The translations under genes and the position numbers were made by a program. The notes under the pieces were generated by a model. The model saw nothing but the letters and a program-made list of their open reading frames with translations. It was not told the DNA's origin and searched no databases. Positions 1,764-59,104 of a stretch of DNA of 64,000 nucleotides are shown here, one piece after another (position 1 is the first letter of the stretch; each line of letters opens with the position of its first letter). The stretch is from Candidatus Babeliales bacterium (GTDB taxonomy: Bacteria; Babelota; Babeliae; Babelales; JANWKD01): the NCBI GenBank assembly GCA_963722255.1, contig CAVRJO010000001.1, positions 384,001 to 448,000 on the forward strand, in the 5' to 3' direction.

Positions 1764-2411
1764 ATGGAAAAAAGGTTGCTAGTATTTAGTATACTTTTAT
1801 TACTCTATGCCCAAGCTATGGAAAAAGAAGAAACCGATATTAAAGAATGTTTAGATCGATATTTTCATGAAAATTCCGAACCCTATATAGTAAGCCAGCT
1901 TTCTTTGTATACGATTTTACAACCAGATCCTGATGCTCATCCTTATCAAGTGCAACAACTCCTTTTTACACAAGAGTATTATTTAAATGATTCTGAACTA
2001 AGCTTACTTTGCACAACACATGATAAAGAACCCACTCAAAGCTATCCACTAAAACGCATCCTGCAACATAAGAAACTGCAGAAAAAGCTTATTAAAGATC
2101 TTATAAAAGCCAAAGCTGATTGGTATACAATAAACAGTGCTTTGTTAGTATTTTATGCTTATTGCGATAATCTCTTTAGGCTCTTAACCGATAGCTTTAG
2201 TATAAAGCATGAACTAAAACGAGTAACAGCCCGCTTGACCTATCATGTTGCTTACTCTTACTATAACAGAAACTCCCCGGAAATGGCGCAAAGAATTTTA
2301 AATGCGTACATGAAAGAAAGAATATTGATGATAGAGTGCCACGATATTTATCAAGATATAAACAAGCTTTTAGAAAAATGCGAATATGTAATTAATCAAC
2401 AAAAAAGCTAA
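1764..2411 (+). CDS. Hypothetical secreted protein (signal peptide then ME)
   Basis: AGGAG SD; hydrophobic N-terminus ending AQA|MEKEE. Confidence 0.75.
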   Translation: MEKRLLVFSILLLLYAQAMEKEETDIKECLDRYFHENSEPYIVSQLSLYTILQPDPDAHPYQVQQLLFTQEYYLNDSELSLLCTTHDKEPTQSYPLKRILQHKKLQKKLIKDLIKAKADWYTINSALLVFYAYCDNLFRLLTDSFSIKHELKRVTARLTYHVAYSYYNRNSPEMAQRILNAYMKERILMIECHDIYQDINKLLEKCEYVINQQKS

Positions 2412-2443
2412 AGCCTTTCAGTTTTATAAACTGAAAGGCTTTA
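2409..2443. terminator. Bidirectional intrinsic terminator
   Basis: Stem taaagcctttcagttt/aaactgaaaggcttta between convergent genes. Confidence 0.8.
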
Positions 2444-2472
2444 TTGTAATCTATAGTATTAATAGTGATTTA

Positions 2473-3477
2473 TTAATCTTTCTCTTTTTCTTTTTCATAG
2501 GGAAATAGCTCTTCTCCCTCCTCTCCCGATTCTTCACCAGTTTCAACGCTCTCTTCTATTGCTTTTCCGGTTTTAAGGCTTTCTATTTTGCGATAAAGAT
2601 TATCCAAAAAGGCCATATCTTGGGAAATATTTCTCGGATCGTAATATTTCTGAAGTCCCGTTATGGAAATAATATCAAAATTATTTCGCACATCTTGGAG
2701 ATTTTTTTTCAATTTTTTAATTTGTGTCAAATCTGTGTCATACATTAATATGCTTTCTTTATTAATATCTAATTTTTTAAAAAAATCCAAATCATTCTTA
2801 ACATTTAATAGCACTCTTTTCAATTCTTTGATTTGCTTCTCTTGGGCAATTCTCTTCTGATTTTCTTGATATTCACGATCTTGTCTTTCAACCGTTTTAA
2901 TAACGTCCTCAATTATATTTTCATATTTTTTTCCCAAAATCTTTTGCTGCTTTTCTACACTTTGCTGAGCGCCTTCTAATTCATTGATATCTTTTACAAA
3001 ATCAGATTCAATTCTTTTTAATTCTTCATTCAGTTTTTTTTGTTCTTCTGTTTTTCTAGTTTTAGAATTGAACTGGTATTCCAATGCATTCCTAAAACTA
3101 TATAAAGGATTAAGATCATCAAGATATGAAGAGAATTGCGAACTCTTAACTTTATTGCTATAAAGATCATCTAACATGTCATCATAAAGTCGATTTAAAT
3201 CATTATTTATCTTTTTTAAACGTTCTATTCTTTTTTGCATTTGTTCTGTAGAGGGCAATTCATTCTTTGTTTGAAGCTTAACTAACTTCTCCTTATATTG
3301 CTCTATTAATCCAGCTCTTCTTTCCTCTTTTTCATTCTTCCGAGTTATCAATTCTTCAGCACTTTTCCAAAGCCTATTTAAATAGCCACTTCCCCAACGA
3401 GTCAATCTTTCCATACCCTGTAATGACATCCCTGCAGAAAGCGCTAACAATACCGCACATAATACTCTCTTATACAT
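2473..3477 (-). CDS. Hypothetical secreted coiled-coil protein with acidic tail
   Basis: Start moved to MYKRV after AAGGAAGGG; signal ending LQG|MER; K/E/Q-rich heptads. Confidence 0.75.
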   Translation of the reverse strand: MYKRVLCAVLLALSAGMSLQGMERLTRWGSGYLNRLWKSAEELITRKNEKEERRAGLIEQYKEKLVKLQTKNELPSTEQMQKRIERLKKINNDLNRLYDDMLDDLYSNKVKSSQFSSYLDDLNPLYSFRNALEYQFNSKTRKTEEQKKLNEELKRIESDFVKDINELEGAQQSVEKQQKILGKKYENIIEDVIKTVERQDREYQENQKRIAQEKQIKELKRVLLNVKNDLDFFKKLDINKESILMYDTDLTQIKKLKKNLQDVRNNFDIISITGLQKYYDPRNISQDMAFLDNLYRKIESLKTGKAIEESVETGEESGEEGEELFPYEKEKEKD

Positions 3478-3707
3478 ACTAAACCCTTCCTTTTTTTGAA
3501 AATACCTATCCATTTAATAAAATTACTATTATAATTAATATATCAAAAAAGCATTATTTTATTCAATAATAAATATTTTTAACTATTTTTTTAATGAAAA
3601 TTAATATTTTTAACTATTCTGGTACCATCTATCACTTTTTTGGCGTATACTCTCTATAAAAAGGCATTAAAAAACAGTAAAAGACTCCCTATAAAATCAA
3701 GGAGCTC

Positions 3708-4103
3708 ATGAAACTACTAAAAAAACGACTTTTATACCCCATAATAACCTTATCTATTATTTCTTTTTTCATGTATGCGAATGCATACGGCTCTCTTATT
3801 GATTCTCTAGAAGAAGTTGAATATATGGTTGGACTCAATGCCCTTGATTGGATAAAAATGGCTATTGGCATCATTACTATAGTTGGTGGCGTAGGACTTT
3901 TTATAACAACAAGCGACAAACGTTCTCATTGGCCCGCATATCTACGCAGAACTTTCTTTGGCATTTTTATATTTTGCAATGTTTCTTTCCAAATGCTTTT
4001 TCATGTTATTAATGTTCCTAATCGGCGATCAGTTGTTTGCTTTTTAGGCTCATGCTTGAATAAACATTTAAAAACTCAGCTTCATACCCAAGGAGTCTTA
4101 TGA
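3708..4103 (+). CDS. Small membrane protein, HWP-motif paralog 1
   Basis: AAGGAG SD; hydrophobic segments; clear similarity to 5828..6208. Confidence 0.75.
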   Translation: MKLLKKRLLYPIITLSIISFFMYANAYGSLIDSLEEVEYMVGLNALDWIKMAIGIITIVGGVGLFITTSDKRSHWPAYLRRTFFGIFIFCNVSFQMLFHVINVPNRRSVVCFLGSCLNKHLKTQLHTQGVL

Positions 4104-4852
4104 AAACCATATTTATTGTATTCCTAGTTTTTAATAGTGCGCTTCCATTAAATCTTACAGCAATGCAAGAGCAAGAAATAAATCTTGAATCTGAAAAAAT
4201 ACCTAGCTTAAAAAACCTGCTGTGCACAAAAATTATTGATGATATTGCTCAAAACAGACTTTCATTGGATATTCTTGATACCATACCTTTTGAATTAGCT
4301 CAAGAACTAGTTAATACATCCTTTAAAGACAGAAAAGACACGCTTGCCCATTTTTATGCTCAAAAAGCCGTTAAAAATAAATCACAAACCATTGAATGGT
4401 TAGAAAAATTAAACTACGTACTCTCTAAAGGGTTTACTAATGTCAACTCTCATGATACCATTCCACTTACACACAGCTTAGTTACAAGCACAACAACAGA
4501 TCGTGCTTTAGATCTTTTATGGGTGCTTCTTAAAAGAGGTGCTTGCATAAATAAATTATATCTCCATCAAAATCTCTTAGAAGCAGCTATTTCACATCGC
4601 AACTTACCAGCGGTAAAAATTCTTACTGAAAATACCAATGCTACAGTAGATCTTACTATATCTGAATACCCACAACCATGTTTAATGCGACGAATTAATG
4701 AATTTTTCAAAACTGATCCTGTATATAGTTACGTACATGATCATGTAGATCTGTATAAATCACGCAGTAATAATCGTTATGTCCTTGCCCCCTGTTGTTC
4801 TGAAGGCGGCCATGAGCCTTATAGCTCAGACCAAAACAAATATTTCATGTAA
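4100..4852 (+). CDS. Secreted ankyrin-repeat protein with N-terminal BC-box/Cullin-box-like motif
   Basis: Signal LTA|MQE; IPSLKNLL...LDTIPFELAQEL; ankyrin-like LLKRGACIN and LLEAAISHRNLPAVKIL. Confidence 0.65.
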   Translation: MKTIFIVFLVFNSALPLNLTAMQEQEINLESEKIPSLKNLLCTKIIDDIAQNRLSLDILDTIPFELAQELVNTSFKDRKDTLAHFYAQKAVKNKSQTIEWLEKLNYVLSKGFTNVNSHDTIPLTHSLVTSTTTDRALDLLWVLLKRGACINKLYLHQNLLEAAISHRNLPAVKILTENTNATVDLTISEYPQPCLMRRINEFFKTDPVYSYVHDHVDLYKSRSNNRYVLAPCCSEGGHEPYSSDQNKYFM

Positions 4853-4982
4853 GGAATCTATTAAATTAATTTTGCAGTAAAACAACAGTTTTTTCACACA
4901 AACTGAAATATTTGTTGCAAATATATATTTTTCTGTTAGAATGGAAATAGTTGATTATTAATTTATTTTGTAGGAGTTACTC

Positions 4983-5386: not shown

Positions 5387-5761
5387 ATGAAAAAAATAAC
5401 TGTATTTTGCCTATTCACTGCGTTCTATGCATGCAATACCATAAAGGGCATGGAAATCAAAAACAGTAACTATGCCTATACTACGCAGGATGATTATATG
5501 ACCGGTAAAGCGGTAATCACCCATACAAAACAATGTGCGGCTATGGGTTCTGTAGCATCGGGATTTGCTTTTTTCACCGCAACAGCAGCACGTCATATGC
5601 ATTGGCCCTATTGGATAAAACGAGCACCGCTTTTTGGATTCATATCTTTCAATGCAATTGGTCAAATACCAACCATAACCGGCATGGATCAAGACCCTAA
5701 AAAAACAACTTTTGTTGGACAGATGTTTAATTATATGGTTAATGGAAAACGGAAAGCATAA
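5387..5761 (+). CDS. Small secreted/membrane protein, distant HWP-motif paralog
   Basis: AAAGGA SD; signal IKG|MEIK; HWPYWIKRAPLFGFISFN aligns with HWPAxxRRxFFGIFxFCN. Confidence 0.7.
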   Translation: MKKITVFCLFTAFYACNTIKGMEIKNSNYAYTTQDDYMTGKAVITHTKQCAAMGSVASGFAFFTATAARHMHWPYWIKRAPLFGFISFNAIGQIPTITGMDQDPKKTTFVGQMFNYMVNGKRKA

Positions 5762-5827
5762 GGTGAATGGGGTGTGATTTTTTATAAAAAATCACACCCC
5801 ATTCACAAACTTACGATAAGGAATTTT

Positions 5828-8902: not shown

Positions 8903-11374
8903 ATGAATTATGATATAAAAAAAATAGAAAAAAAATGGCAAGAATATTGGCATGATCATAAGATTGGTCAAGCAAAGCCAACAGGCGATGGGAAAAAATA
9001 TTATTGCTTAGATATGTTCCCTTATCCTTCTGGCTCAGGGTTACATGTTGGCCATTGGCGCGGCTATGTTCTTTCTGATGTCTATGCACGTATCAAATGG
9101 CTCCAAGGATATAATGTTTTGCATCCTATGGGTTGGGATGCATTTGGACTGCCTGCAGAAAATGATGCAATTAAAAAAGGAATTCATCCAGCAAATTGGT
9201 ACAGCGCGAAATATTGCTACATTTTAAACAACAACTGCAAGAAGTTGGTGCAATTTATGATTGGTCAAAAGAGCTTAATACCACCGATCCAAATTATTAT
9301 AAATGGACCCAATGGATTTTTTTGCAAATGTATAAAGCAGGTCTTGCATATCGAAGCGAATATGCCGATTAACTGGTGCCCTTCTTGTTTGACTGGTCTT
9401 GCAAATGAAGAAGTGGTCAATGGCGGCTGTGAGCGTTGTGGCACACATGTTGTACAAAAAAAAATTCGCTCAATGGGTATTACGAATTACCGAATATGCA
9501 GAAAAACTTCTTGCATGGTCTTGATAACCTTGAATGGCCAGAAAAAGTTAAACTTGATGCAACGAAACTGGATTGGCAAAAGCGAAGGGATTATTTTTAC
9601 TGCACCGGTTAAAGATAGCGATTTGACAATTCAAACATTTTCAGCCCATTTTGAAGCATGCTATGCCGATACATTTGTGGTGATTGCACCAGATCATCCG
9701 TTATTGCAAATGCTTCTTGAAGGTGAACATAACATGAAAGAAAAGTTCTCGATTTTTGCAAAGAATTAGTTAAAAATCGTGCTGAAACAAACATCGTATG
9801 ATACAAAGAATCAGAAGGATTTTTACCGGACGATATATTATTGATCCCTTGGTAATGGCGATCTTCCTATTTGGGTTGCAAGTTATGCCTTAGCAGATTA
9901 TGGCACAGGTATTGTAAAATGTTCCGCGCATGATGAACGTGATTTTGCATTTGCAAAAAAATATACCATTCCGCTCAAAGTTGGTTTAATTCCTGCAGAT
10001 AGATCCTGAATTGCGAAACAAGTTAAAACTCAAGAAGTGTGCTATACCGATATGGATCAATGGTATTCTTACTTGAACCTGCACCATTTGCTGGTAAAAC
10101 GCAGGTCGGTACGCAATACAATTATGCTGATTATTTAGTTGATACATAGGCTTAGCTGCAACGAAAAAGTTAGCTATAAACTTACGTGATTGGATCTTTT
10201 CGCGTCAGCGTTATTGGGGCGAACCAATTCCTTTAATTCATTGTCGTCAATGTGGCATTGTTCCGGTTCCTGAAGATCAGTTTCCTGTAATACTTCCTGA
10301 AGTTGAACATTATCAACCAACTGGAACGGGCGAATCGCCATTGCAGCAATTACCGATTGGGTCAATACTACCATGTCCACAATGTGGAGGACCTGCAAAG
10401 CGTGAAACAAATACTATGCCACAATGGGCAGGTTCATGTTGGTATTTTTTACGCTATCCAAATCCACATCTTAAAAGATGAACCATTTGATCAAAAAGAT
10501 ATGAATTATTGGTTGCCGGTTGATTTATATGTTGGTGGTGTTGAACATGCAATTTTGCATCTATTGTATTCACGCTTTTATGTAAAAGTTCTATATGATC
10601 TTGGTTATTTGCCATTTCGATGAACCATTTACGCATCTTATTTAATCAAGGAATGGTAAATCAAGATATTCAGAAAAATCTGGCGCTGTTGAAAAAATGT
10701 CAAAATCTAAAGGCAATGTGGTCAACCCTGATGAAATCGTGCAAGAGTATGGTTCAGATGTATTGCGAATGTATATTCTTTTTATGGGACCTCCAGAACT
10801 TGATTGTGAATGGCAAGATGCGGGCATTGAAGGTATCAAACGATTCCTTCATAAATTATGGGATTATGTAACAAATCCTACGACAATTTTGCAAGATAAT
10901 GAACAAGAAGATAGTACAGTAACAAAGCGGTTCCATAAATTTTTAAAAGAATTTCAAGAGCGCCTTGATCATTTTAAGCCAAACACAGCAATTTCTGCTG
11001 CCATGGAATGGCTTAATGATGCAACAACAGGGCATATGAAGTTGAGCAGAAAAACAGCACAAGAACTTTTTGTTGCCTTATCATGCATGATTCCTCATAT
11101 GTCAAGCGAACTTCTTGAGCAACTGCTTGGTAAAAAACTTGAAGAGTGCGCATGGCCCGTATTTGATAAAAATTTAACAATAGACGATACTGTGCCACTT
11201 ATTATTCAAGTGAATGGAAAAATGCGTGGAGAACTTACCATTGAACGAAAGAGCACACAAGAAATTGTTGAACCTCAAGCCCGTGAACTCATTGCAAAAT
11301 GGCTTGAAAATAAAACAATAGTAAAAGTAATTTTTGTACAAGATCGTTTAATAAACTTTGTTGTTAAGGAATAA
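8903..11374 (+). CDS. leuS: Leucine--tRNA ligase, broken by many frameshifts (probable sequence errors)
   Basis: [101 protein letters not shown] recovered across shifting frames. Confidence 0.95.
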
Positions 11375-11497: not shown

Positions 11498-11746
11498 TCA
11501 AAAAAGCCAACACCAATTTTCAGTAGTTTGTGGCCTACCGTGCGCTCGTATCATAGCAGCGTACAATGCATCTGCTTGTGTAATTCTTTGACCCATCTCA
11601 TTTTGTTGTTTTGCAACTGCAAGAGCAACTTGAATTTCAAAAAGCGAAGGTCGTTCATTACCATATTCATCAACTTTATTTTCCATACTTTTCAAAGAGG
11701 CAACGACACTCAAACAGTAAATAAAACAGATAACAATTTTATTCAT
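11498..11746 (-). CDS. Small secreted protein ending CWLF
   Basis: Start MNKIV after GAGGGAG SD; signal LKS|MENK. Confidence 0.65.
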   Translation of the reverse strand: MNKIVICFIYCLSVVASLKSMENKVDEYGNERPSLFEIQVALAVAKQQNEMGQRITQADALYAAMIRAHGRPQTTENWCWLF

Positions 11747-18081: not shown

Positions 18082-18693
18082 ATGAAAAAATTAGTATTAT
18101 CCTTGAGCTTGATGCTTCTATCACTATCCCAGACAAAAAGCATGCATTCAGAAATTTTTAAAAATATCCCAACTTCAAGCGCTTTAACTATAGTAAAAAA
18201 AATGGTCTTAACCGTTTGTGGAAAATATGCACTTGACCCTCTAGTAAATAGCATTCATGAACTAGGACACATGCTCACTCTAAAATTATTATTAGGAGTT
18301 GATAGTACTATTCATTTAACTATAGTTCCTTGGCGCCCACCATATTTTCAATTAAAAGAACCTATGGTTCTTCCAAAAGGATTACGTCTAGCGTCAGTTT
18401 ATGCTGCAGGACCATTAGCTGGATTATTGGCGATCTATTCGCTCTCTAAACTTAATAATATTCGTTATGAATATTTCACCGGAACGCCAATCATGCAAGC
18501 AGTAACAACCGGTTTAATAAAGCCATTTTTCAATAGTGACCAAAGCTGGACAACAAAAACAGTATTAGGTTGGATGATAGTAGACCAATTATTTAATTTT
18601 ATTCCCTTGAAACTTTATTTGCCACAACTAGGAGAGTCAAAAAGTGATGGATATCAAATACTTGAAGCATTAGATTATTATCAAGAAAAATAA
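18082..18693 (+). CDS. M50-like membrane zinc metalloprotease, paralog 1
   Basis: HELGH, YAAGP, FNFIP, SDGY; signal peptide. Confidence 0.75.
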   Translation: MKKLVLSLSLMLLSLSQTKSMHSEIFKNIPTSSALTIVKKMVLTVCGKYALDPLVNSIHELGHMLTLKLLLGVDSTIHLTIVPWRPPYFQLKEPMVLPKGLRLASVYAAGPLAGLLAIYSLSKLNNIRYEYFTGTPIMQAVTTGLIKPFFNSDQSWTTKTVLGWMIVDQLFNFIPLKLYLPQLGESKSDGYQILEALDYYQEK

Positions 18694-19549: not shown

Positions 19550-20134
19550 ATGCATCTCAAAAAATTAATAGCTTCTTTATGCTTCCTCTTAGCAGCAAAC
19601 CATACGTCACAAACTATGAATCTGGAATATTTTAAAAATATGGCCTCTCAAGAAACTATAAAAACAGTTGGCGTTGCATTAGGTGCATTTTGCTTGATCA
19701 ATCCTCAGTTTTGTAATTTTCATGAACTATGCCATGGCCTTACGGTAAAAGCATTGTTTAATCTGCCGGTAACTTATAAATTCGAATTTCTTCCTTGGAA
19801 ATTCCCTGCCTATGACTATGATAAATCAAAAGTTCCACTAAAAGGATTACGCAGAGCTCTTTTGCATGCAAGTGGCACCGTAGGTGGATTAGCTGCGATT
19901 TATGCAGCATCAAAATGTGTCAATATTGGCATAGAATACTATGGCGGTCAATCACTTATCGAAGCTGTTTCCAATGGATTACAAAAATCATTTTTTTCAT
20001 GCGATCAGCATTTTGCAAGGCGACTGGTTTGCGCAGGCTTAATTACGACACAACTGGCAAATCTAATTCCCTTCAAGTGGCCTTTTGAAAGTGATGGTTA
20101 TCGCACTCTAAAGGCTTTGAATATTATAGAATAA
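19550..20134 (+). CDS. M50-like membrane zinc metalloprotease, paralog 3
   Basis: HELCH, HASG, NLIP, SDGY; signal peptide. Confidence 0.7.
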   Translation: MHLKKLIASLCFLLAANHTSQTMNLEYFKNMASQETIKTVGVALGAFCLINPQFCNFHELCHGLTVKALFNLPVTYKFEFLPWKFPAYDYDKSKVPLKGLRRALLHASGTVGGLAAIYAASKCVNIGIEYYGGQSLIEAVSNGLQKSFFSCDQHFARRLVCAGLITTQLANLIPFKWPFESDGYRTLKALNIIE

Positions 20135-20428: not shown

Positions 20429-20800
20429 TTACTGCATACAACACTTCTTTTTTTCATTTCCTGAAATTTCATCTGACTCTTTTATATCAGCGCTGCTGAT
20501 ATCAATACATATCAAGAAAAAATCATAGGTAATACAATAACAAGTAAACGGCTCATATAAGGTAACACGTGATTCATGTGCATCAAATACTGCTTTCAAA
20601 CAATTTGATTCAATAACTTTTTTGGGTACCTGTAAATCAACCGATTCTTGCATAAGTTGCTCGGCAATATCTTTTTTTGTTACCCATGGTTCTACAGCAG
20701 AAACTATTTCATCAAAATTCAAGAGCATACTGCTACATGGCTTTGATATAAACAATAAAGCTGTACAAGAAAGAATTTTTACATAGTGAGCTTTTTGCAT
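20429..20800 (-). CDS. Hypothetical secreted protein ending KKKCCMQ (CaaX-like)
   Basis: AAGGAG SD; signal-like N-terminus; polybasic plus CaaX C-terminus. Confidence 0.7.
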   Translation of the reverse strand: MQKAHYVKILSCTALLFISKPCSSMLLNFDEIVSAVEPWVTKKDIAEQLMQESVDLQVPKKVIESNCLKAVFDAHESRVTLYEPFTCYCITYDFFLICIDISSADIKESDEISGNEKKKCCMQ

Positions 20801-20926: not shown

Positions 20927-21727
20927 TTAATATATACAACAGGCATCATAATAATAGCGTTGATATAGAGCTTCTCTCATTATTTTCTCATTTTTTTTAC
21001 AAGCATTATCTACAGATTCATCTATTTGCAGTACGAATGGCAACAAATCTTCTGCACCCTCTTTAGGAGAAATATCCGATGTATCAAGTTTAAAATCATA
21101 GTGCTTATGATCATCCACAATCTCTTGTAATCTCGATCCTTTTCTATAATGTTGCTCGAAATAACATTCTAATCTATGTTGCAACGTATCATCCGATGCA
21201 TTTCTTTCTTGTAACCTCTTTTTTGCAATTTCATACGAACAAAAAACTTTAATCAAAGCAATAGTTTGAAGCTTCTTTCTAAAAACATATAGAAAATCGA
21301 GGAAACTTCCTCGATTCATAAAGCAATGATCTACTATTACCAACTTTCCTTCAACCATTTTTTCCAAGATTTGATTGTAAAAAATAACAAAATCTTGTTG
21401 TATTTCCTGTTTGATACCTTTTAAATAAGGATCTGCAAAAATATGAATTCCCTTATTTTCAAAATAAGCTATTTGTTCTTTGGTATAGTTACTATTATTG
21501 GACACTTCTACTTGATATCTATCAAAACTCATATGAGATACATTATTAATTCCTTTTTCATGAGCAAGATTCACCAACGACTTTGCCAAAGATGTTTTTC
21601 CTGCGCATGAAGGACCGTTCAAAAGCGCAAGACGAATATCATTATCATGCCTTTCTTCCATACAAAAAGTCGAAGCGCATGCAAATAAAAATCCGCTTAA
21701 TAAAACTTGTATACTAGTACTGTTCAT
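20927..21727 (-). CDS. Secreted P-loop kinase (chloramphenicol phosphotransferase/AAA_33-like)
   Basis: LLNGPSCAGKTS Walker A, VIVDH, RLQERN lid, YDFKLDTS; signal FC|MEER; ends CCIY. Confidence 0.75.
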   Translation of the reverse strand: MNSTSIQVLLSGFLFACASTFCMEERHDNDIRLALLNGPSCAGKTSLAKSLVNLAHEKGINNVSHMSFDRYQVEVSNNSNYTKEQIAYFENKGIHIFADPYLKGIKQEIQQDFVIFYNQILEKMVEGKLVIVDHCFMNRGSFLDFLYVFRKKLQTIALIKVFCSYEIAKKRLQERNASDDTLQHRLECYFEQHYRKGSRLQEIVDDHKHYDFKLDTSDISPKEGAEDLLPFVLQIDESVDNACKKNEKIMREALYQRYYYDACCIY

Positions 21728-24226: not shown

Positions 24227-24874
24227 ATGAAACAATACTTTTTACCAACATTTTTTATTTTTTTAAATGTCTTTAAACCAACTCTCTGCATGCAAAGAGA
24301 TTTCGCTCTCCATAAAGAAAGAAATCTGTATCGTTGGTCACAACTTATGTATATTCAAGCACTTATGGAGCCAAACCTACTCGTTCAACAGGACCTTTTT
24401 AATCAAGCCCATACCTTAGCAACGACAAAAGACCTTAGAAAGAAAATCGAAAAATCAAAAAGATTTGCGCAAAAAAGCTATGCTGCCGATGCAAAAAAAG
24501 CCCTTCTATCAAAGTTAGTTGCTCAACAACTAGTAAAAGAGGCCAAAAGGAAAAATAAAGAATTAGCGCACAAAAAAGCAGAATTATCAAAAAGCAAACA
24601 ACGAAAAATAATTCGTCAAGAGTATATTCGATTAGTAGAAGAAAAAAACAGGCTCTTGGATCTTGCACAAAAAGAATATATTGCTGCAGCAATGTTCTAT
24701 CTTTTAGTATATGACAATGCACAAAAAGAGCGGTATCTTTCATATGCTGAAGATATTGTCAGCAAAAAGATATATGAAATTGAAATTGAACAGATGTCAA
24801 CCTCACATATCTTTACTATATATAATGAAAAAATTAATCTTTTTAAAGAAATACAAAAACGCAAAGGAAATTAG
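24227..24874 (+). CDS. Hypothetical secreted helical, Lys-rich protein
   Basis: Start MKQYF; signal TLC|MQRD; abuts M3 peptidase gene. Confidence 0.65.
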   Translation: MKQYFLPTFFIFLNVFKPTLCMQRDFALHKERNLYRWSQLMYIQALMEPNLLVQQDLFNQAHTLATTKDLRKKIEKSKRFAQKSYAADAKKALLSKLVAQQLVKEAKRKNKELAHKKAELSKSKQRKIIRQEYIRLVEEKNRLLDLAQKEYIAAAMFYLLVYDNAQKERYLSYAEDIVSKKIYEIEIEQMSTSHIFTIYNEKINLFKEIQKRKGN

Positions 24875-30818: not shown

Positions 30819-31406
30819 TTAGTTCACACGATACTCATTAATTCCACGATAAACTAAAGCACCACCCACTAAGGAATAGGGAAGCCATTTACTAAAAGAC
30901 CCCGCAAATGTAGCAACCATTCTTAATTTTGAAGTTTTTTCTTTTCTTCTTTTTGCATCTGCACAATAAGCAAAAGCATTCTTTAAAGCAGGAATGGAAA
31001 TAAGTCCTACTACAATTGCTGTTGGCTTAATCAAAGAAGTTAATTCTACTTGTTGAGACCATGAACAACAGCGCGCCGCAAGAGCACAGCCTATACCTGC
31101 AGGAAGTCCGTAGCAGAGTGTATCTATAAAACTTTCACCCAAAATATCTATTTTTTTGCTCATAAGACGACCCCATAAATCAGTACGTTGTTTATAGAAA
31201 TTGATCCAATCATCTGATTCAACTAAAACTTTAGTAACTAATTTACTAGCACCAACAAAAGCGGCCGCCGCAAGAGCTATTTTTCCAGCTTCTTTGGTTA
31301 ACACGGTATTCTTGAGCATTTCAGCATACTGCATAGAAAAAACCGTACTTGACGATCCAACAAGCATTATCCCCATAAAAATCTTTGAAAATTGAAAATT
31401 TTTCAT
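30819..31406 (-). CDS. Hypothetical secreted/membrane protein
   Basis: Start MKNFQF after AAAGGA; signal VFS|MQY; several Gly/Ala-rich hydrophobic segments. Confidence 0.7.
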   Translation of the reverse strand: MKNFQFSKIFMGIMLVGSSSTVFSMQYAEMLKNTVLTKEAGKIALAAAAFVGASKLVTKVLVESDDWINFYKQRTDLWGRLMSKKIDILGESFIDTLCYGLPAGIGCALAARCCSWSQQVELTSLIKPTAIVVGLISIPALKNAFAYCADAKRRKEKTSKLRMVATFAGSFSKWLPYSLVGGALVYRGINEYRVN

Positions 31407-32184: not shown

Positions 32185-32201
32185 GCCAAAAACCTTTTTT
32201 A

Positions 32202-32237
32202 ACAAGAGGGAGCGAACAGCAATTCGCTCCCTCTTGT
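32202..32237. terminator. GC-rich intergenic hairpin
   Basis: acaagagggagcgaa-loop-ttcgctccctcttgt; no clear U-tract on the minus strand. Confidence 0.55.
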
Positions 32238-39016: not shown

Positions 39017-39667
39017 GTGAGTTTTATGAATATTTTTAAAATAAGCATCCATGTACTAGTTATCTTATCACTGGGTAGTTCAATAAATGGTATGGAAAAT
39101 GGAAAAGATCAACTCTTAAAAAAAGTAGTTATCGGAACCTATGTTTCAACAATTTTAGCTGAAATAGCTTTAATCGCATCACCAGCGTTTCAATCATTCA
39201 TCTTTGGTAATGAAACTGTCAATGAAGCAACTAAAAATCATATTCAGTTGCTAGCAAATTCATATAACATAAGTTCAGTTCCAACTATACAGCAGGGATA
39301 TTCATTGTGGCACAAAATTGTTGGTTCAATATTTTCCAACCATGCAACGTTATTTGTTAATCCCTCTGCAAACATTCTAACCTCCGATGCTAAAGACGAT
39401 ATTAAAAAAAGCCTTATCGCTATAGAATTCAATCGAGATCGAAACATTCTTATAGCAGCTTTAGCTGTGCCTATCTTTGTATATGGAACCCTTACGGCAG
39501 GATCGTTATTTCTTAAAAATATAGTCCCAACAGAGAATGGTATTCTGAGTAAAATCAAAATAGGGATCGATTATCTTTCTCAAAATTTTAAGCTAACGGC
39601 TTTAATAACCCTTGGAACAATCTACGGATTCATTAAAGCACAGGATTATTATTTAGCACGACGCTAA
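39017..39667 (+). CDS. Hypothetical secreted/membrane protein
   Basis: Signal ING|MENG; three further hydrophobic segments. Confidence 0.7.
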   Translation: MSFMNIFKISIHVLVILSLGSSINGMENGKDQLLKKVVIGTYVSTILAEIALIASPAFQSFIFGNETVNEATKNHIQLLANSYNISSVPTIQQGYSLWHKIVGSIFSNHATLFVNPSANILTSDAKDDIKKSLIAIEFNRDRNILIAALAVPIFVYGTLTAGSLFLKNIVPTENGILSKIKIGIDYLSQNFKLTALITLGTIYGFIKAQDYYLARR

Positions 39668-39878: not shown

Positions 39879-40463
39879 ATGAAGAATAGTAAAAAATTTC
39901 TACTTATATTTATTCCATTATTCGTATCATCCTATGCTTTGGGTATGGAAAAATCTTTAGAAGAGCGGATAAAAAACCTGGAGGATAAAGTTGCTTTACT
40001 GGAAAAATCAAGCGAAGCACCAACCTATGAAAAATGTTCTCCAGATGGAAAAAATTGTAAAAGAATTACTCAAAAAAAAGCTTCTACTATAATCCGTAAA
40101 AAAGGGAAACGTCATAGAATAAGAAGATGTCGCGGTAGTCGTTGTGATTGGTTGGCTGGTCATGGAAATGTACAACAAAAATTCCAAGAACTACAAAAAA
40201 AATATGGAATAAAACCATTAACTTCACAAGAATTTGCTGCGGTACAAGGTGGAAAGCAACAACCGGGAGTAACACAGGCACAATTCAATAAACTTCGATC
40301 ACAAATTAATGAACTGTTATCAAGCAAAACTGCAACTGAAGAAGAAATAAACAAAAAAATTGATGAATTTGCACGATTAAATCCTGCGCGTAGACCTTCT
40401 CCTGAAGATTATAGAGAAGTTTTAAAAGCAAAAATTGAAGCAGAACGAGAAGAAGTAGAATAA
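39879..40463 (+). CDS. Hypothetical secreted basic protein with NLS-like stretch
   Basis: AAGGGGG SD; signal ALG|MEKS; RKKGKRHRIRR; two Cys pairs. Confidence 0.75.
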   Translation: MKNSKKFLLIFIPLFVSSYALGMEKSLEERIKNLEDKVALLEKSSEAPTYEKCSPDGKNCKRITQKKASTIIRKKGKRHRIRRCRGSRCDWLAGHGNVQQKFQELQKKYGIKPLTSQEFAAVQGGKQQPGVTQAQFNKLRSQINELLSSKTATEEEINKKIDEFARLNPARRPSPEDYREVLKAKIEAEREEVE

Positions 40464-41106: not shown

Positions 41107-41774
41107 AAAGCAGTATCCAATACTGATAATACCTGCAGCAAACTCTGCATAAGAGGAGTTACATATAAACTCCATTGATCCTTTTTTTTCAAACTTATTT
41201 CAATGCCAATTGCCGGACCAACAATACCTATTAATGGTTTAAAAGGTACTCCAATTGTCCCTTTATATTCAAAAAGTGAAGCATACGATTTTTGCTTTAA
41301 AGATTGTTCTAATGCAGTTGCTATCTTTTTTGTCGTAGAAAGCTTCGTTCGATGTGCCTTATCATAAGGAATAAAAGCAAGGTCAACGGTTGGTTTTTGC
41401 CAACAATCAGTACTATCGTTAAGAAAATAATAAACAAAAAGCTCAGGCTTTGGCGCATCTTCATAATAAAAATGAAAACTTACATAAAGATCAACGTCTA
41501 ATCTATTTGCAAAACTTGCATTCTGCAAAGGTTCTAATGATTCACCGGGAAATCGTGTTAAAATAACTCGTAATGAAGGATCATGAATCTCAAGATATTT
41601 TTTTAGCTTTTCAGCAAATTGAAGCGTAATTCCTCGCTCAAAAGAATCTTCGATTATCCGCCCTGCATGTTTAGCATCACCGGCCGGATCGAGCATAAGA
41701 GTAAATTGCCGCGCACAAGAGATCTGAAAAAGTATGCTCCAAAAAAATAGTTGTAGAAATTTTTTTATCGACAT
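41103..41774 (-). CDS. N-acetylmuramoyl-L-alanine amidase (Amidase_3-like, atypical first Zn ligand)
   Basis: LDPAGD, ERGITL, VILTR, FANRLDVDLYVSFH, AIGIEI. Confidence 0.8.
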   Translation of the reverse strand: MSIKKFLQLFFWSILFQISCARQFTLMLDPAGDAKHAGRIIEDSFERGITLQFAEKLKKYLEIHDPSLRVILTRFPGESLEPLQNASFANRLDVDLYVSFHFYYEDAPKPELFVYYFLNDSTDCWQKPTVDLAFIPYDKAHRTKLSTTKKIATALEQSLKQKSYASLFEYKGTIGVPFKPLIGIVGPAIGIEISLKKKDQWSLYVTPLMQSLLQVLSVLDTAL

Positions 41775-44114: not shown

Positions 44115-45209
44115 ATGAAAAAAACTATTATTGCTCTAGTCCTTTCTTTAAGTTTTTTAAATACATCAGTTTATGGAATGGAGAAGAAAGCACCAAAAGC
44201 TGAAAACCTAACCCCTGAAGAAATATTTGAAAGAATATATCCATGCATTATTGATGAAGAAACAGCTTTGAACGCAACAGTAAATGTTAAGCCATTTCAA
44301 CCAGCTTTACAACCACTTCTTCATACCTGGCAAGTTAACTATGCTCGAGCTGCAAATAACAAAAAATTTTCAGAATCAGATATTTTAGCGGAGATTAAGC
44401 TATGGACCCGCATAACAGTAGAACAACCGTCTAATCCTATATATACATCCCCATTACATAAAGAAACAAACTCTGACAGAAATTCTTATCAGTTCCGAGA
44501 ATTTTTTATGAAATTAGCCTCAACAATTTATGTAGCAAGTGATGCTATTGCATTTTATAAGACATATGATGTAATTCGCCAAAATGAAGACATTATTGAT
44601 CAAATATTAGAAAGAAAAGAGTCTTCTCATTCTGCACCTGAAGGTGGTGAAAAGGAAGAGAAAACGTTTCGATTCCAAAAGACTAATGTATGGGAAGTGT
44701 TAACAAAGGGCTATCCAAAATTAAATGCTAGTGCAAATGTTGCAGAATTTCTGAATCATTTGTCTTTAGATTTTAATGAAGGAGTGTATGTGGTTGAGCA
44801 ATCTCATGATATAAGACTGTCGCCACAATCTACACGAGAAAAAGATTCCACCGATGAAAATATAGATGGACTCTCTATTTTGAAACTTATCAAAAAAAGG
44901 TTTCCTGGAAAAAAAATAGAATCGAACAATCCAAGATTACTTGATAATCTCAAGGAATCAATGTTCAGAACTGAAAATGATACGGTAATGATCAACTTTG
45001 CTAGCATTACACACAAACCAATAGAACCCAAAACCGAAAAAGAAGCAAACAAAAAACAAGCTCCTCTTGAAAACACCTCAAATACCAATAACACGGCAAA
45101 AAACAGCTCTAAATTCACACCTAACTCTTTTGCTTGCGGTGCTCTAACAACATTGGGAATTGTTGGCATTTGTTATATACCAAAATTATATCATTGGTTT
45201 CGCTCATAA
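44115..45209 (+). CDS. Hypothetical secreted protein with C-terminal TM anchor
   Basis: AAGGA SD; signal VYG|MEKK; C-terminal hydrophobic helix. Confidence 0.75.
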   Translation: MKKTIIALVLSLSFLNTSVYGMEKKAPKAENLTPEEIFERIYPCIIDEETALNATVNVKPFQPALQPLLHTWQVNYARAANNKKFSESDILAEIKLWTRITVEQPSNPIYTSPLHKETNSDRNSYQFREFFMKLASTIYVASDAIAFYKTYDVIRQNEDIIDQILERKESSHSAPEGGEKEEKTFRFQKTNVWEVLTKGYPKLNASANVAEFLNHLSLDFNEGVYVVEQSHDIRLSPQSTREKDSTDENIDGLSILKLIKKRFPGKKIESNNPRLLDNLKESMFRTENDTVMINFASITHKPIEPKTEKEANKKQAPLENTSNTNNTAKNSSKFTPNSFACGALTTLGIVGICYIPKLYHWFRS

Positions 45210-45278: not shown

Positions 45279-45809
45279 ATGCGTATAACAATTTTGGCAC
45301 CATGCATCATCATATTTTTTTCACTGGCTCTTAATGCAATGGAAGAATCAAATGAAGAAAGTCATACAGCGTTAAGCTCTTCTTCTATCAATACTGTAGT
45401 AGATGACACACAAAAAACTCAGATTTTTTTTGGTACGCTAGAAACTATACCATTTCTTATCAAAAATGGAGCATCAATTGCACACCATGATTCTCGTGGA
45501 TATTCTGTAATCGATCATTTCATTTTTGAAAGAAAATTTCTAGAAGCAGCGTGCGCATTAGAACATGCGGATGAAAAAGCGGCAAATGAAGCAATCTCAA
45601 AAAAGACAAGCTATTTATTCACCGACCCCTACAACCATGTGCTTGAATTTTCTGATAACGATGAAATTCAAATTCATAAAATTCTTTATGAAAAGTCAGT
45701 GGTGATACAAGAAGGCGTCCTGGGACACTTTCCAAGAATTCTTACCATTCAAGACTGGATCGCTCTTTTTAAAATCATGGCTCCTTATTGCCAACGGCTT
45801 AATTATTAA
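45279..45809 (+). CDS. Secreted protein with ankyrin-like segment
   Basis: Signal LNA|MEES; IPFLIKNGASIAHHDSRGYSV. Confidence 0.6.
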   Translation: MRITILAPCIIIFFSLALNAMEESNEESHTALSSSSINTVVDDTQKTQIFFGTLETIPFLIKNGASIAHHDSRGYSVIDHFIFERKFLEAACALEHADEKAANEAISKKTSYLFTDPYNHVLEFSDNDEIQIHKILYEKSVVIQEGVLGHFPRILTIQDWIALFKIMAPYCQRLNY

Positions 45810-50441: not shown

Positions 50442-51626
50442 ATGCCCATGAAGCGATTACCAATTTTTATAAGTAATTTTCCAGAAATGATTAATGATGA
50501 GTATGCTTACATAGATAAAACTGAACAGATTTATAATCTGGTCAAAAATAAGGGATTTTATTTTCTTTCGCGTCCTCGTCGTTTTGGTAAATCACTCCTT
50601 GTTTCTACCTTAAAAGAAGTTTTTTTGGCAAATAAAAAGTTGTTTAACAATCTTTGGATTAGTAACAGCGATTATGTATGGGAAAAATACCCGATTATTG
50701 AAATCGATTTTTCACAGATACCGCGCTTAACAACAGATGAGTTTAGATCTGCGCTCAACCGGCATTTAAAAAACATAGCAGCCGAATATACTCTACTCCT
50801 TCCGGGCGATTTAAATACTCCTGAAGAAACATTGATAACATTGGTTAAAGGACTGAATAAACATACCCATAATAACATTGTCATTCTTATTGATGAATAT
50901 GATAAACCGATTATTGATCATATTCATAGCCATGAAGAAGCTACTAAGTATCAGGCAATTTTAAGAAGTTTTTACACAACCATTAAAAGTCTCGAGCACC
51001 ATCTTCATTTTGTTTTTCTTACCGGCGTCAGCAATTCCAAAAACATCGGTCTTTTCCGGAATTAATAACTTAAACGATATCTCTCTTAAACCTGAAGCTG
51101 CTCAGCTTTTAGGTTACACTCATGATGAAATACAGCATTATTTACACGAATATTGTGAAGAATTTGCACAAAAAGCTCATAAACCTCTCGAAGAAATTAC
51201 GAAACTACTCACCACATGGTATAATGGTTATAGATTTTCAAAATCACCAACTAAAGTATATAACCCTTTTTCAGTACTCTATTGCCTTCATGATAAAGAG
51301 TTTCAAAACTATTGGTTTGCTTCCGGCACACCAACGTTCCTTATAACATTGCTCAAAAAAGAGTATGAATATATTGAAAATATAGAAGAGATTGAACTTT
51401 CTCCTGAAAGCTTTGGCACGTTCGAACTCAATGATATTCCGCTTGTTCCTCTGCTTTTTCAAACGGGATACCTGACCATCAAAGATTTTAATGAGAGACC
51501 GGCATGTTTAAACTTGGTTTCCCGAATTGTGAAGTGCAAGAAACATACAAAGCCTTAATTGGTTTATCATTTATACATACCAATAATGAGATGCATTTAG
51601 AACATGTTGAAGAAGTTTTTAACTAA
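50442..51626 (+). pseudogene. AAA-ATPase/PD-(D/E)XK protein copy 2; frameshifted and lacking the nuclease domain
   Basis: Near-identical to 55675 copy at the 5' end; jumps from GFPNCEVQETYKA to LIGLSFIH..HLEHVEEVFN*. Confidence 0.85.
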
Positions 51627-57234: not shown

Positions 57235-57314
57235 GATTAGCTTTTTTTGTTAAACTAATTAGACTAAAAAGAGCTGTTGTATAAAGAGTTTTTCCATCTT
57301 TAAGGAATCATACT

Positions 57315-58049
57315 ATGCAGGAAAATCGTCCTAAAAATTTTAGAAGAATCATCGTTGAAGGAAATATAGGCGCAGGCAAATCAACCTTTTTGCGCTTACT
57401 CCAAAACCATTTTTCTGCTCAATTTGTTTTCGAGCCTCATGAACAATGGCAAAATGTAGGTGGACACAACCTTTTAGATAAATTTTATACTGAACAAAAA
57501 CGTTGGGCTTATACCTTTCAGTCCTACGCTTTTGTAACACGCATGAGAGCAGATGAACAAGCTCTCAAAAACAACAACCACAATACACTCATAGTAGAAC
57601 GATCAGTATTTTCTGATCGTTATTGTTTTGCAAAAAACTGTTTTGAAATGGGCGTTATAACTCCTTTGGAATGGCAACTATATCAAGATTGGTTTGAATG
57701 GCTCGTTGAAACGCAAAATTATATTCCTGATGGATTTGTATATCTTAAAACTGATCCAAAAATCTGCCACCAACGAATGATGAATCGCAATAGAAGTGAA
57801 GAATCTGCCGTAAGTCTTGAATACCTCACTATGATTCATCAAAAGCATGAAGATTGGCTTATTAAGAAAATTGGTATCCCAAACTATTTACTCCATGTCC
57901 CTGTTTTAAGTTTAGAATGCGATACAGATTTTGAATTTGATTCTACTGAACTTCAAAAACATTTTCTTGCTATTGAAGAATTTTTCAACATCCCCACAAT
58001 GCATAAAGAGAATGATCTATCCTTTGAATCAAGGGCCAATGTGCAATAG
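57315..58049 (+). CDS. Deoxynucleoside kinase (dNK family)
   Basis: EGNIGAGKST, EPHEQW, RWAYTFQ, ERSVFSDRYCF, RNRSEE. Confidence 0.93.
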   Translation: MQENRPKNFRRIIVEGNIGAGKSTFLRLLQNHFSAQFVFEPHEQWQNVGGHNLLDKFYTEQKRWAYTFQSYAFVTRMRADEQALKNNNHNTLIVERSVFSDRYCFAKNCFEMGVITPLEWQLYQDWFEWLVETQNYIPDGFVYLKTDPKICHQRMMNRNRSEESAVSLEYLTMIHQKHEDWLIKKIGIPNYLLHVPVLSLECDTDFEFDSTELQKHFLAIEEFFNIPTMHKENDLSFESRANVQ

Positions 58050-58078
58050 AATAATGCTAAATTAGGAAAGTAGTAAAG

Positions 58079-59104
58079 ATGCAAAGAGCAAAAAAACAGT
58101 TGGTTCTTAAAAAATATACCTATTATATCTTCTTGAGTAGCATATTTTTATTAAATTTTAATGCTCTCAATACTATGGAAAATAATAATAAGCATAGAAA
58201 TAAAAGAAATAAAAGTTGTTTATCGACAAAACCCCAACCTAAACTTCAACCTAGTGAAAAATTTTTAACAAGCAATCCCAATCAAATTGATTATTTTAGT
58301 TCATTACCCATTGAATTAATCGCTTTTATAACTTTATTATTGCTTGAAAATCCTCTTAACCAAGAGAAACAATATCCTGATTTTGATATAGCGTTACGCG
58401 CTGTTTTACAAGATGTTACCTCTTTTGCATTAATAAACAAGGCCATGATGTTGATTTTTTCAGATACTGAATCTGATTTTGCAAAGCAGGCTGCAACTTA
58501 TCTTACTAACAATATCACCATCAAAATTGTACTATCGAGAGATTTTTCAAAAATAAATAATCGAGATAAATTAATTGTACCTTTTTTAAAAGTTGCCCTT
58601 AAAAATCATAGAGATTATCTTTTAAAACAATTTCAAATCAATCTCAAATGGATGGAGTCTTTAAAGCAGCACACGGCAGAAGCACTAAAAACGCTCAAGG
58701 ATTATCAAGAATTAACTTATGCTCCACATGAATATACAATATTTGGCCTAAATGGCTTTGCTTTAGACAGCATTTCTACTTTATTTACAATTTTTTATAG
58801 CGGTGTAGAGCTGAAAAAAATACATTACAATAGTAGTATACAGGTAAAAAAATTCTACGATTGGCATTTCGAAAGGAGATCGCACTATTGCACACTACTT
58901 TCATTTGCTCTTGATATGGTTAATTTTAGTAAGCTCCAGGATAAACCCTTTGATTTTATTAAACTACTTATAGCTCAAGGCGCTGATCATAGCAGGATCT
59001 GTACAATACCTACGTGTAAATATCCTACACCATGGCAAGAAGCTAAAGAAATTCAAACAAAAGATCCAAGAATTTTAGCTCTATTTGATGACAATACCAA
59101 TTAA
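58079..59104 (+). CDS. Secreted protein with F-box-like motif and C-terminal ankyrin-like segment
   Basis: Signal LNT|MENN; DYFSSLPIELIAFI; FIKLLIAQGAD. Confidence 0.6.
   Translation: MQRAKKQLVLKKYTYYIFLSSIFLLNFNALNTMENNNKHRNKRNKSCLSTKPQPKLQPSEKFLTSNPNQIDYFSSLPIELIAFITLLLLENPLNQEKQYPDFDIALRAVLQDVTSFALINKAMMLIFSDTESDFAKQAATYLTNNITIKIVLSRDFSKINNRDKLIVPFLKVALKNHRDYLLKQFQINLKWMESLKQHTAEALKTLKDYQELTYAPHEYTIFGLNGFALDSISTLFTIFYSGVELKKIHYNSSIQVKKFYDWHFERRSHYCTLLSFALDMVNFSKLQDKPFDFIKLLIAQGADHSRICTIPTCKYPTPWQEAKEIQTKDPRILALFDDNTN

Follow-up and report, generated by a model that had tools for sequence, protein, structure and literature searches.

The window analyzed here is a 64,000-nucleotide stretch of DNA from a Candidatus Babeliales bacterium of the amoeba-parasite type (assembly GCA_963722255.1, contig CAVRJO010000001.1, positions 384,001 to 448,000), and the subject of this report is a group of 16 of its genes, each of which encodes a putative exported protein with a Met residue directly after the predicted signal-peptidase site. 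The assembly comprises 1.62 Mb in two contigs with 34% GC and is labelled G000 in the comparisons below; the best named matches of its AtpA were proteins of Dependentiae, TM6, and Babeliales metagenome-assembled genomes, at 65–69% identity. A preliminary description of the window had drawn attention to these 16 genes, and we found the arrangement in all of them (16/16): a Sec-type signal peptide, small residues at -3 and -1, and then Met. The positions by which the genes had been identified are gene starts, not positions of the Met. We first supposed that upstream non-coding DNA had been read in frame and mistaken for signal peptides, which was wrong, because these positions are the true upstream starts; our own gene caller misplaced or missed three of the 16 genes (18082, 21727, and 24227). 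The layout of the 16 open reading frames (ORFs) is M(K/N/R...), a hydrophobic stretch, a short polar stretch with small -3/-1 residues, and an internal Met at residue 19–33, which is followed by Glu in 10 genes, Gln in three, and Asn, His, and Leu in one each. A Shine–Dalgarno (SD)-like aaggag or aagga precedes most of the upstream ATGs.

Fifteen of the 16 proteins have no Pfam family, and the remaining one is a CPT-like P-loop kinase. At the left end of the window, a 215-aa orphan (1764..2411, + strand; signal peptide 1–18, YAQA↓MEK, where the arrow marks the predicted cleavage site; no Pfam family) is followed by a 334-aa coiled-coil-like orphan (2473..3477, - strand; signal peptide 1–21, SLQG↓MER), for which the public call uses an alternative upstream ATG at 3513 (346 aa) and no homolog was found among 5.8 billion proteins. 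The 250-aa protein at 4100..4852 (+; signal peptide 1–21, NLTA↓MQE) has a weak, sub-threshold ankyrin match, and its same-genus ortholog (28% identity) retains ILYT↓MES. Orphans of 124 aa (5387..5761, +; signal peptide 1–21, TIKG↓MEI) and 82 aa (11498..11746, -; signal peptide 1–20, SLKS↓MEN) precede two HExxH membrane proteins, of 203 aa (18082..18693, +; signal peptide 1–20, QTKS↓MHS; HELGH recognized by eye) and 194 aa (19550..20134, +; signal peptide 1–22, TSQT↓MNL). These two neighbors look alike by eye, unaligned, with the HExxH sequences HELGH and HELCH, and the gene at 18708 between them has a weak Peptidase_M50B-like match. They are followed by a 123-aa orphan (20429..20800, -; signal peptide 1–24, PCSS↓MLL) with the polybasic CaaX-like end KKKCCMQ, the 266-aa CPT-like kinase (20927..21727, -; signal peptide 1–22, STFC↓MEE; PF07931, E = 1.4e-12), which ends in CCIY, a 215-aa orphan (24227..24874, +; signal peptide 1–21, PTLC↓MQR), and a 195-aa membrane-type orphan (30819..31406, -; signal peptide 1–24, TVFS↓MQY). 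A second membrane-type orphan, of 213–216 aa (39017..39667, +; SING↓MEN), starts at GTG 39017 or ATG 39026. The 194-aa basic orphan at 39879..40463 (+; signal peptide 1–22, YALG↓MEK) has a same-genus reciprocal best hit (35% identity) that retains YSIC↓MDP. No homolog was found among 5.8 billion proteins for the 364-aa orphan with a C-terminal hydrophobic tail at 44115..45209 (+; signal peptide 1–21, SVYG↓MEK). The last two are a 176-aa orphan (45279..45809, +; signal peptide 1–20, ALNA↓MEE) and a 341-aa orphan with a long n-region (58079..59104, +; signal peptide 1–32, ALNT↓MEN), the latter of which is absent at the syntenic site of the same-genus genome.

For the genome-wide analysis, 1564 genes of G000 were called by a codon-usage score. 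A protein was classified as signal-peptide-like when it had a 9-residue uncharged core with a mean hydropathy of ≥1.9 and a net positive n-region; this is a crude heuristic, used in place of a trained predictor, which also admits some cytoplasmic and polytopic proteins. By this definition, 621 of the 1564 proteins (40%) are signal-peptide-like, in agreement with the 44% share given in the account of Chromulinavorax (PMC6561590). A carrier was defined as a signal-peptide-like protein with Met right after a von Heijne -3/-1 context, 3–9 residues past the core. With this -3/-1 filter, 209 of the 621 proteins were carriers (214 with a slightly wider zone), which is an undercount, because members without a basic n-region or with a non-ATG start escape. 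In the window, 16 signal-peptide-like proteins have the Met and 15 do not.

A genome-wide check for enrichment of the Met, proposed in the preliminary description and run here with the heuristic, gave a clear result: Met occupied 279 of 4347 positions (6.4%) at +3 to +9 past the hydrophobic core as against 436 of 28521 (1.5%) at +15 to +60 (chi-square p ~1e-93). At residues 19–25, its frequency was 4.0–8.1% in the signal-peptide-like set and 0.9–2.5% in other proteins. Within the c-region, 216 of 318 Mets (68%) followed a von Heijne -3/-1 context, compared with 1206 of 5589 positions of all kinds (22%) and 0–24% for every other residue type, and Met was the commonest residue after -3/-1 sites (17.9%). 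When the Mets within 12 residues of the core were taken without any filter on their neighbors (n = 305), -1 was A/S/G/C/T in 230 and -3 was L/S/I/V/A/T/C in 252, -2 was bulky, and +2 was Glu in 102. The motif peak is sharp, at 4–9 residues past the core, and the median position of the Met in carriers is residue 22. The features of Sec/signal peptidase I signal peptides are present, i.e., a basic n-region, an h-region of about 10–15 residues, and small -3/-1 residues (by eye in the 16 proteins and in the genome logo), and the length, hydrophobicity, and n-region charge of the signal peptides are alike in carriers and non-carriers. At -4 to +3, synonymous codons are chosen as in the genome at large, and the motif is therefore a protein-level signal. 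The upstream k-mers of carriers consist of AT-rich words only, with no common motif, and the GC content at third codon positions in carriers equals that of the genome.

Chance, paralogy, or an annotation artifact could be invoked on the grounds that the heuristic is crude and that the largest paralog family, the ankyrin proteins with 35 members, supplies 20 carriers. However, besides the p value given above, the 209 carriers fall into 164 BLAST families, with 59% lacking any paralog. The share of carriers in control genomes is 0–13%, and the nucleotides at -3/-2 before the internal ATG (G 54%, C 59%) are unlike the upstream DNA of 26% GC. An origin of this kind is therefore extremely improbable; the observation is real, and chance is excluded. 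Judging from the -3/-1 pattern, cleavage presumably occurs exactly before the Met. Two further models of the cleavage site were discarded: an unsupervised model trained on 245 signal peptides of low-Met genomes settled on the hydrophobic core (+1 = L, I, K, V) and was judged invalid, and a position weight matrix trained on carriers, which hit the Met in 161 of 209, is circular and was dropped as evidence. Two known types of leader were also rejected. Type IV prepilins have a short basic leader that is cut after Gly and followed by a hydrophobic segment with Glu at +5, whereas here the hydrophobic segment lies before the Met and residues +3 to +9 are polar; in lipoproteins, the lipobox requires Cys at +1, whereas here +1 is Met and the enrichment of Cys is confined to -1 and -3.

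We examined the distribution of the carriers among relatives by applying one pipeline to genome pieces of 100–600 kb each, a sample outside which G004, G002, and several families lie; the counts below are strict carriers over signal-peptide-like proteins. High counts were obtained in the same genus (G001, 73/227), the same family (G003, 61/173), and family f17 (G020, 49/153; +2 is Asp in 16 and Glu in 14). The counts in the other families were 12/41 (G024) and 5/42 (G040) in family f18, 8/27 with mixed +2 residues in family f3 (G058), and 6/43 in family f11 (G014). Eight other Babeliales genomes (G005, G016, G009, G008, G006, G018, G010, and G052) gave 16/245 when pooled, ten Dependentiae loci around atpA (L061-L070) gave 1/56, and 70 non-Dependentiae loci (L071-L140) gave 1/90, with 0/30 in the diderm subset. 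The trait is thus strong in 6 of the 16 sampled genomes and at background level in 8, i.e., patchy within the order, tending to larger genomes. In the eight low genomes, 16 of the 40 Mets in the zone were preceded by a -3/-1 context, compared with ~22% for other residues, so a faint version may be widespread.

The carriers turn over rapidly. The window's housekeeping genes stand in the same order in G001, at 50–92% identity, and 14 of the 16 window carriers have no detectable homolog in the sampled 600 kb of that genome (42% of its main contig, with the syntenic region included); several of the syntenic gaps in G001 contain nothing at all. The carriers are therefore young or very fast-evolving. 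Across the genome, the carriers of G000 gave 24 reciprocal best hits in the same 600 kb, two of which are polytopic false positives. In the remaining 22 pairs (23–67% identity), the Met is found after a strict -3/-1 site in 17, at the boundary by eye in 19, and not at all in 3, compared with a baseline retention of 32% (p = 2e-5 to 2e-7); these counts of orthologs are small and were made partly by eye. By comparison, 19 of 88 other Mets within the aligned blocks are conserved, and at the flanking positions identity is limited to 0–9 of 19 pairs. Among the farther pairs, the Met is kept in 5 of 9 with G003 and 2 of 4 with G020. The retention of the Met in diverged pairs suggests that it is under selection and yet not fixed.

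The residue after the Met is also restricted. The preliminary description had likened the mature ends to eukaryotic NatB substrates, and the corresponding set of +2 residues (Asp, Glu, Asn, or Gln) was found in 150 of the 209 carriers of G000 (72%), with small and hydrophobic residues depleted. The same set accounted for 41/54 in G001, 46/61 in G003, and 35/49 in G020 (71–76% over the four genomes), as against 22–31% at +3 to +8 of the same carriers; small residues made up 4–13% at +2 and 30–45% at +3 to +8, and hydrophobic residues made up 5–13% and 17–20%, respectively. Glu alone occurs at +2 in 103 of 209 carriers (49%) as against 53 of 943 (5.6%) at residue 2 of non-exported proteins, where Lys (15%), Asn (11%), and Ala (9%) are more frequent. 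Because the Glu-rich +2 position is unlike the native residue 2, Met-Glu is not simply an old start context.

These data bear on the possibility that the Met is a fossil start codon, i.e., that in genes once cytoplasmic, newly born, or newly acquired, an upstream extension of the reading frame added the signal peptide and left the old initiator Met at +1 without a present role. The youth of the carriers fits this explanation (14 of 16 without a homolog in the sampled part of G001, and two without any among the 5.8 billion proteins), as does the decrease in the carrier share with gene age, measured by reciprocal best hits to G001, G003, and G020. Furthermore, the +2 residues of G058 resemble native second residues, and relatives of the CPT-like kinase that lack a signal peptide start 3–12 residues before the P-loop strand, much like the Met. 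However, a fossil would not account for the Met being kept in 17–19 of the 22 ortholog pairs despite flanks of only 0–30% identity, for Glu at +2 being so much more frequent than at native residue 2, or for the position of the Met immediately behind the -3/-1 site, where larger offsets form no tail. There are also signal-peptide orthologs with another +1 residue, and no shared 5' cassette was detected: only two convincing pairs with similarity restricted to the 5' end were found among the 209 carriers. We consider a fossil without a present role to be unlikely as a full explanation; it may well explain how the arrangement originated, but not why the Met is maintained.

A different use of the internal ATG would be the production of two proteins from one gene, with the first ATG yielding an exported form and the internal ATG one that stays in the cytoplasm. 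The internal codon is always ATG (by definition), the sequence after it is A-rich, and some signal peptides of relatives have only GTG, TTG, or no canonical start. Nevertheless, an SD-like motif 4–18 nt upstream was found at 0 of 214 internal ATGs, the corresponding shares being 61.7% for called starts, 7.4% for internal Mets elsewhere, and 7% for the c-regions of non-carriers; the zero count comes partly from the start rule, and only 14 genes could hide exceptions, about four of which look real. The -3/-1 residues indicate cleavage rather than initiation, and proteins with CaaX ends, ankyrin repeats, or WD40 repeats have no evident use inside the bacterium. Synthesis of two products is very improbable. 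In the relatives' genes G003_88, G003_271, and G014_61 (from the loci L021-L040 and L141-L145), the signal-peptide part has only GTG/TTG or no canonical start. Because the upstream start is GTG, TTG, or weak in such genes, gene callers, ours included, begin at the internal ATG and the signal peptide is lost, which is a warning for the annotation of these genomes.

To characterize the proteins that carry the Met, we took 45 carriers and 96 other signal-peptide-like proteins lying whole within 20-kb pieces of a 400-kb stretch of contig 2. None of the 45 carriers belonged to a classical envelope family, compared with 12 of the 96 non-carriers, with unequal Pfam cut-offs of E ≤ 1e-4 for carriers and E ≤ 1e-5 for non-carriers. 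Thirty-four of the carriers had no Pfam family, seven were ankyrin proteins, two were WD40 proteins, one was M48, and one had a sub-threshold synaptobrevin match. Fifty-nine of the non-carriers had no family at E ≤ 1e-5, and the others included BamA, Skp, a SurA-like isomerase, a penicillin-binding protein, two M23 peptidases, S41, SecD, FKBP, BatD, VWA, NfeD, three GH1 proteins, and S9, as well as a few evident false positives of the signal-peptide test (e.g., ribosomal L4, PadR, and a dehydrogenase). Ankyrin or WD40 domains were found in 9 of the 45 carriers and 3 of the 96 non-carriers. The MscS, amidase, and beta-barrel-region proteins of the window also lack the boundary Met. The carriers cluster on the chromosome, with 46 adjacent pairs as against 27.8 ± 4.6 in shuffles.

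Of the 209 carriers, 11 have a CaaX-like C-terminus, compared with 9 of the 1355 other proteins (p ~1e-5); these 9 divide into 3 among the 412 signal-peptide-like non-carriers and 6 among the other 943 proteins. In the relatives, the figures are 6/211 and 9/1945. Such ends are present in only 5% of the carriers, several of them behind polybasic stretches (e.g., KKKCCMQ and KKKCSIQ), and they suggest that some members of the class act in the cytosol of the host. The CPT-like kinase at 20927..21727 is an informative case. It has three database homologs (P0002, P0004, and P0008) at 40–55% identity, and in all four members a signal peptide is followed directly by Met-Glu; the signal peptides themselves cannot be aligned, and the Met-Glu at the junction is invariant. 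Two of the three homologs end in a CaaX box, CLLS or CLLQ. A profile search of 1.84 billion representatives recovered three groups of kinases: in the closest subfamily, the signal peptide is always followed by Met and then Glu or Asp, and the more distant relatives have a signal peptide without the Met, or none and then start as described above. The union of a signal peptide and a CaaX box in one protein family would imply export by the bacterium followed by prenylation in the host.

Based on these results, the class is a fast-turnover, effector-type secretome composed of orphans and of ankyrin, WD40, and CaaX proteins, without the envelope housekeeping proteins. The interpretation offered in the preliminary description thus stands in part. 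The split between the two classes, the link with CaaX ends, and the +2 set were upheld; no F-box or SOCS/BC-box match was found in the 15 window orphans, even at E ≤ 1, for the F-box-like and BC-box-like assignments, and the assumption that carriers are soluble effectors does not hold for all of them, because some are membrane proteins.

Two genes in the window that lie outside the class may be noted here. The product of the gene at 31495-32205 (-) has a hydrophobic segment at its N-terminus, which lacks the Met, and then a histone methyltransferase domain of the DOT1 type (PF08123, E = 3.4e-17); it is a candidate effector against host chromatin. The gene at 33026-33592 (-) encodes an exported protein that consists mostly of GGGHGGGG-type glycine/histidine repeats. 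In addition, 27166-27384 and 28130-28483 (-) encode small exported proteins with a near-identical signal peptide (MMKKSLISKIALAIVLVSASTQ..FG) that diverge afterwards, both without the Met.

The sharp division between carriers and envelope proteins raises the possibility of a second-step sorting tag, in which Met-Glu is read in the periplasm by a type II-type apparatus or at vesicle loading and separates more than 200 effectors from the residents. Because carrier and non-carrier signal peptides are otherwise alike, the information for such a separation must lie at +1/+2. The motif is also position-specific and conserved, and, beyond Sec, the only system detected in G000 is of the secretin/GspE type: there are two secretins and two GspE/PilB-type ATPases, and no match to VirB4, VipB, or FHIPEP was obtained in this genome, which is 93% complete. 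Similarly, type II secretion is described as the only system detected in Babela, in which 79 of 126 ankyrin proteins have signal peptides (PMC4378268), and two gspD copies are reported in TM6 genomes (PMC4776705). However, the +2 preference varies by lineage (E, D/E, D, or none), ~40% signal-peptide proteins and the same secretion genes are also found in the Babeliales genomes in which the trait is at background, and no co-distributed machinery was found. Moreover, we know of no linear N-terminal signal for type II secretion. Overall, a sorting tag appears rather unlikely.

Among known systems, the Q-rule of Bacteroidetes is the nearest, as far as the analogy goes. Under this rule, Gln at +1 of signal peptidase I sites is cyclised to pyroglutamate (PMC5837995 and PMC10653852). 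Like the Met class, it is a lineage-specific rule for the residue exposed by signal peptidase I, it was found from genome-wide logos, and it is thought to set the fate of the N-terminus. It differs in that it concerns Gln and most substrates, whereas the Met class has Met, usually with Glu, on about one-third of the substrates, and is tied to effectors and patchy in one order; the Q-rule end is modified, and no modifying enzyme is known for the Met class. The sequences of G000 do not follow the Q-rule, since +1 at rule-satisfying sites is Met in 17.9% and Gln in 5.8%. The words methionine, TM6, and Dependentiae have 0 occurrences in the Q-rule paper (PMC5837995), the preliminary description knew of no characterized system of this kind, and no +1 Met rule was found in the literature searched, a scope outside which bioRxiv supplements and subscription journals lie, so the rule seems to be undescribed.

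By analogy with this precedent for a lineage-specific, stabilizing +1 rule (PMC5837995 and PMC10653852), the Met could serve in the bacterium's own envelope, where Met-Glu might resist periplasmic or secreted aminopeptidases or suit one LepB paralog. There are two LepB genes each in G000, G001, G003, and G020; those of G000 (C2:137884-138756 and C2:701907-702770) look like close paralogs by eye, unaligned, and both keep the Ser and Lys motifs. But the LepB copies look alike by eye, and the copy number, 1–2 among 21 Babeliales genomes, does not track the Met trait, two copies being found in background-level genomes as well; this lack of a link counts against a sorting tag, too. In addition, only a third of the substrates are covered, and the longest-lived periplasmic envelope proteins are skipped. 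A role in the envelope is thus improbable.

Host-targeting leaders are known from eukaryotic parasites, namely the PEXEL of Plasmodium and the RXLR-EER of oomycetes. As in the Met class, the signal peptide is combined with a brief conserved mark near the N-terminus, the effector bodies are mutually unrelated and evolve fast, and processing likewise yields a defined new N-terminus with an acidic or amide residue. The defining motifs of these leaders, RxLxE/Q/D and RxLR, are located about 15–30 residues beyond the signal peptide and are cleaved by a dedicated protease. The carriers have neither, nor any RxL element; apart from Glu at +2, their logo over +2 to +9 contains just generally polar residues. 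Unlike PEXEL and RXLR, the Met class would need no second protease, because the mark abuts the signal peptidase site itself; moreover, those leaders belong to eukaryotes, and the Met class to a bacterium equipped with Sec and a type II-type apparatus. Legionella-type effectors, which include CaaX, ankyrin, and F-box proteins, lack a signal peptide and keep their native N-terminus on leaving by a type IV system. The Met class shares their eukaryote-like repeats and C-terminal prenylation boxes and differs by its Sec signal peptides. A conceptual parallel for a sorting tag only is provided by the ER-ESCAPE tripeptides of endoplasmic reticulum (ER) cargo, in which residues exposed by signal-peptide removal sort the next transport step through Surf4/Erv29p (PMC6097701); this is a eukaryotic cargo receptor with another motif.

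The carriers can also be compared with the rules that govern N-termini in the eukaryotic cytosol. There, how stable a protein is depends on its N-terminal residue, and Met is removed by methionine aminopeptidase only if a small residue follows; degron ends are described as Asp, Glu, Asn, Gln, basic, bulky hydrophobic, and Met-hydrophobic ends, with Cys, Pro, Gly, and Ala depending on context (PMC8037982). The NatB-type and N-degron rules in the same review share with the carriers Met followed by Asp, Glu, Asn, or Gln and the depletion of small and hydrophobic second residues. Free Met-Glu or Met-Asp is one of the few neutral ends in this compartment. Acetylation by the ribosome-bound enzyme is not expected, because the end would arise post-translationally by the action of a bacterial signal peptidase. 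Listeriolysin O is reportedly degraded by the host N-end rule according to the residue that follows cleavage.

We consider it probable that the Met-(Asp/Glu/Asn/Gln) end is a selected, functional mature N-terminus of effectors. As to what it does, our specific suggestion, made tentatively and from sequence data, is that a Met-Glu-type end stabilizes effectors in the host cytosol. The precursor would be exported by Sec, signal peptidase I would cut right before the Met, and the protein would then exit the cell, perhaps by a type II secretion/type IV pilus-type apparatus, which is the one additional system detected. Once in the host cytosol, a free Met-Glu, Met-Asp, Met-Asn, or Met-Gln end would be tolerated, being neither an Arg/N-degron nor a Met-hydrophobic degron. 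Methionine aminopeptidase would leave it in place because this enzyme needs a small second residue, and an end that escapes both the aminopeptidase and the degron rules would spare the effector from destruction from its N-terminus. Both the delivery to the host cytosol and the stabilizing role are proposals. A more general form of the proposal, which is a real possibility although we would not call it probable, is that some Babeliales use a Met rule, in which signal peptidase I writes a Met plus acidic/amide mark that commits effectors to the host, either as a signal for type II-type export or as a degron-proof end; this mark would sit on hundreds of unrelated, rapidly born effectors.

Several results weigh against the idea of a selected, stabilizing end. 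In an automated ortholog table, the 24 carriers of G000 map to 10 carriers, 7 signal peptides without the Met, and 7 non-signal-peptide proteins in G001, and non-carriers map to 7 carriers, 52 signal peptides without the Met, and 19 non-signal-peptide proteins (7 of 78 with a carrier ortholog). This table is weaker than the alignments described above because the signal-peptide test, with its basic n-region and ATG start, fails on many G001 n-regions. The unsupervised site model, discarded above as invalid, placed the site before the Met in only 40 of 299 G000 proteins, which is within the 6–17% range of control residues. Asp, Glu, Asn, or Gln is found at +2 in only 1 of 8 carriers of G058, where the residues are mostly small or mixed and would permit removal of the Met. 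In G000, Glu exceeds Asp by 10 to 1, which stability alone does not explain, and another family has at least as much Asp as Glu. Ser, Thr, and Val at +1 are also stabilizing, and therefore the stability hypothesis alone does not predict Met. Finally, three ankyrin proteins lack the Met, and some carriers are polytopic, tail-anchored, or conserved proteins that are not obvious cytosolic effectors.

These findings bear on a question raised for the Dependentiae: ~40% of the proteome is routed via Sec with no dedicated effector injection system, and how hundreds of ankyrin and orphan proteins reach the host has been asked (PMC4378268 and PMC6561590). The mark is simple, conserved, and class-specific; it would offer a sequence rule for candidate effectors, and mutation of its Met or Glu a way to probe how they are sorted or how they survive in the cytosol of the host. 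It would also be a second example, after the Q-rule of Bacteroidetes, of lineage-specific selection on the residue exposed by signal peptidase I. If the Met rule is true, sequence alone could suffice to predict the effectors of Dependentiae, and bacteria would have in this mark an equivalent of the PEXEL and RXLR leaders.

Other genes of the window showed irregular structures. The leucyl-tRNA synthetase gene at 8903-11374 (+) is split into the ORFs 8903-9769, 10303-10623, 10620-10871, and 10697-11374. It also gave two separate best hits in the same-genus genome and is a single gene in G003 and G020; a frameshift, decay of the gene, or an assembly error could account for the split. The peptidase M3 gene at 24877-26958 is intact, and a second copy at 28688-30756 (+) is broken into two overlapping ORFs, as is a RecD2-type helicase at 41765-43949 (-). 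In the ATP synthase operon at 59238-63961 (+), which contains the c, b-like, delta, and alpha genes, atpA is followed directly by a PF09820 AAA-ATPase-like gene, not by atpG; members of this AAA-ATPase/PD-(D/E)XK family also occur, as copies or fragments, at 7696, 50442-51558, and 55675.

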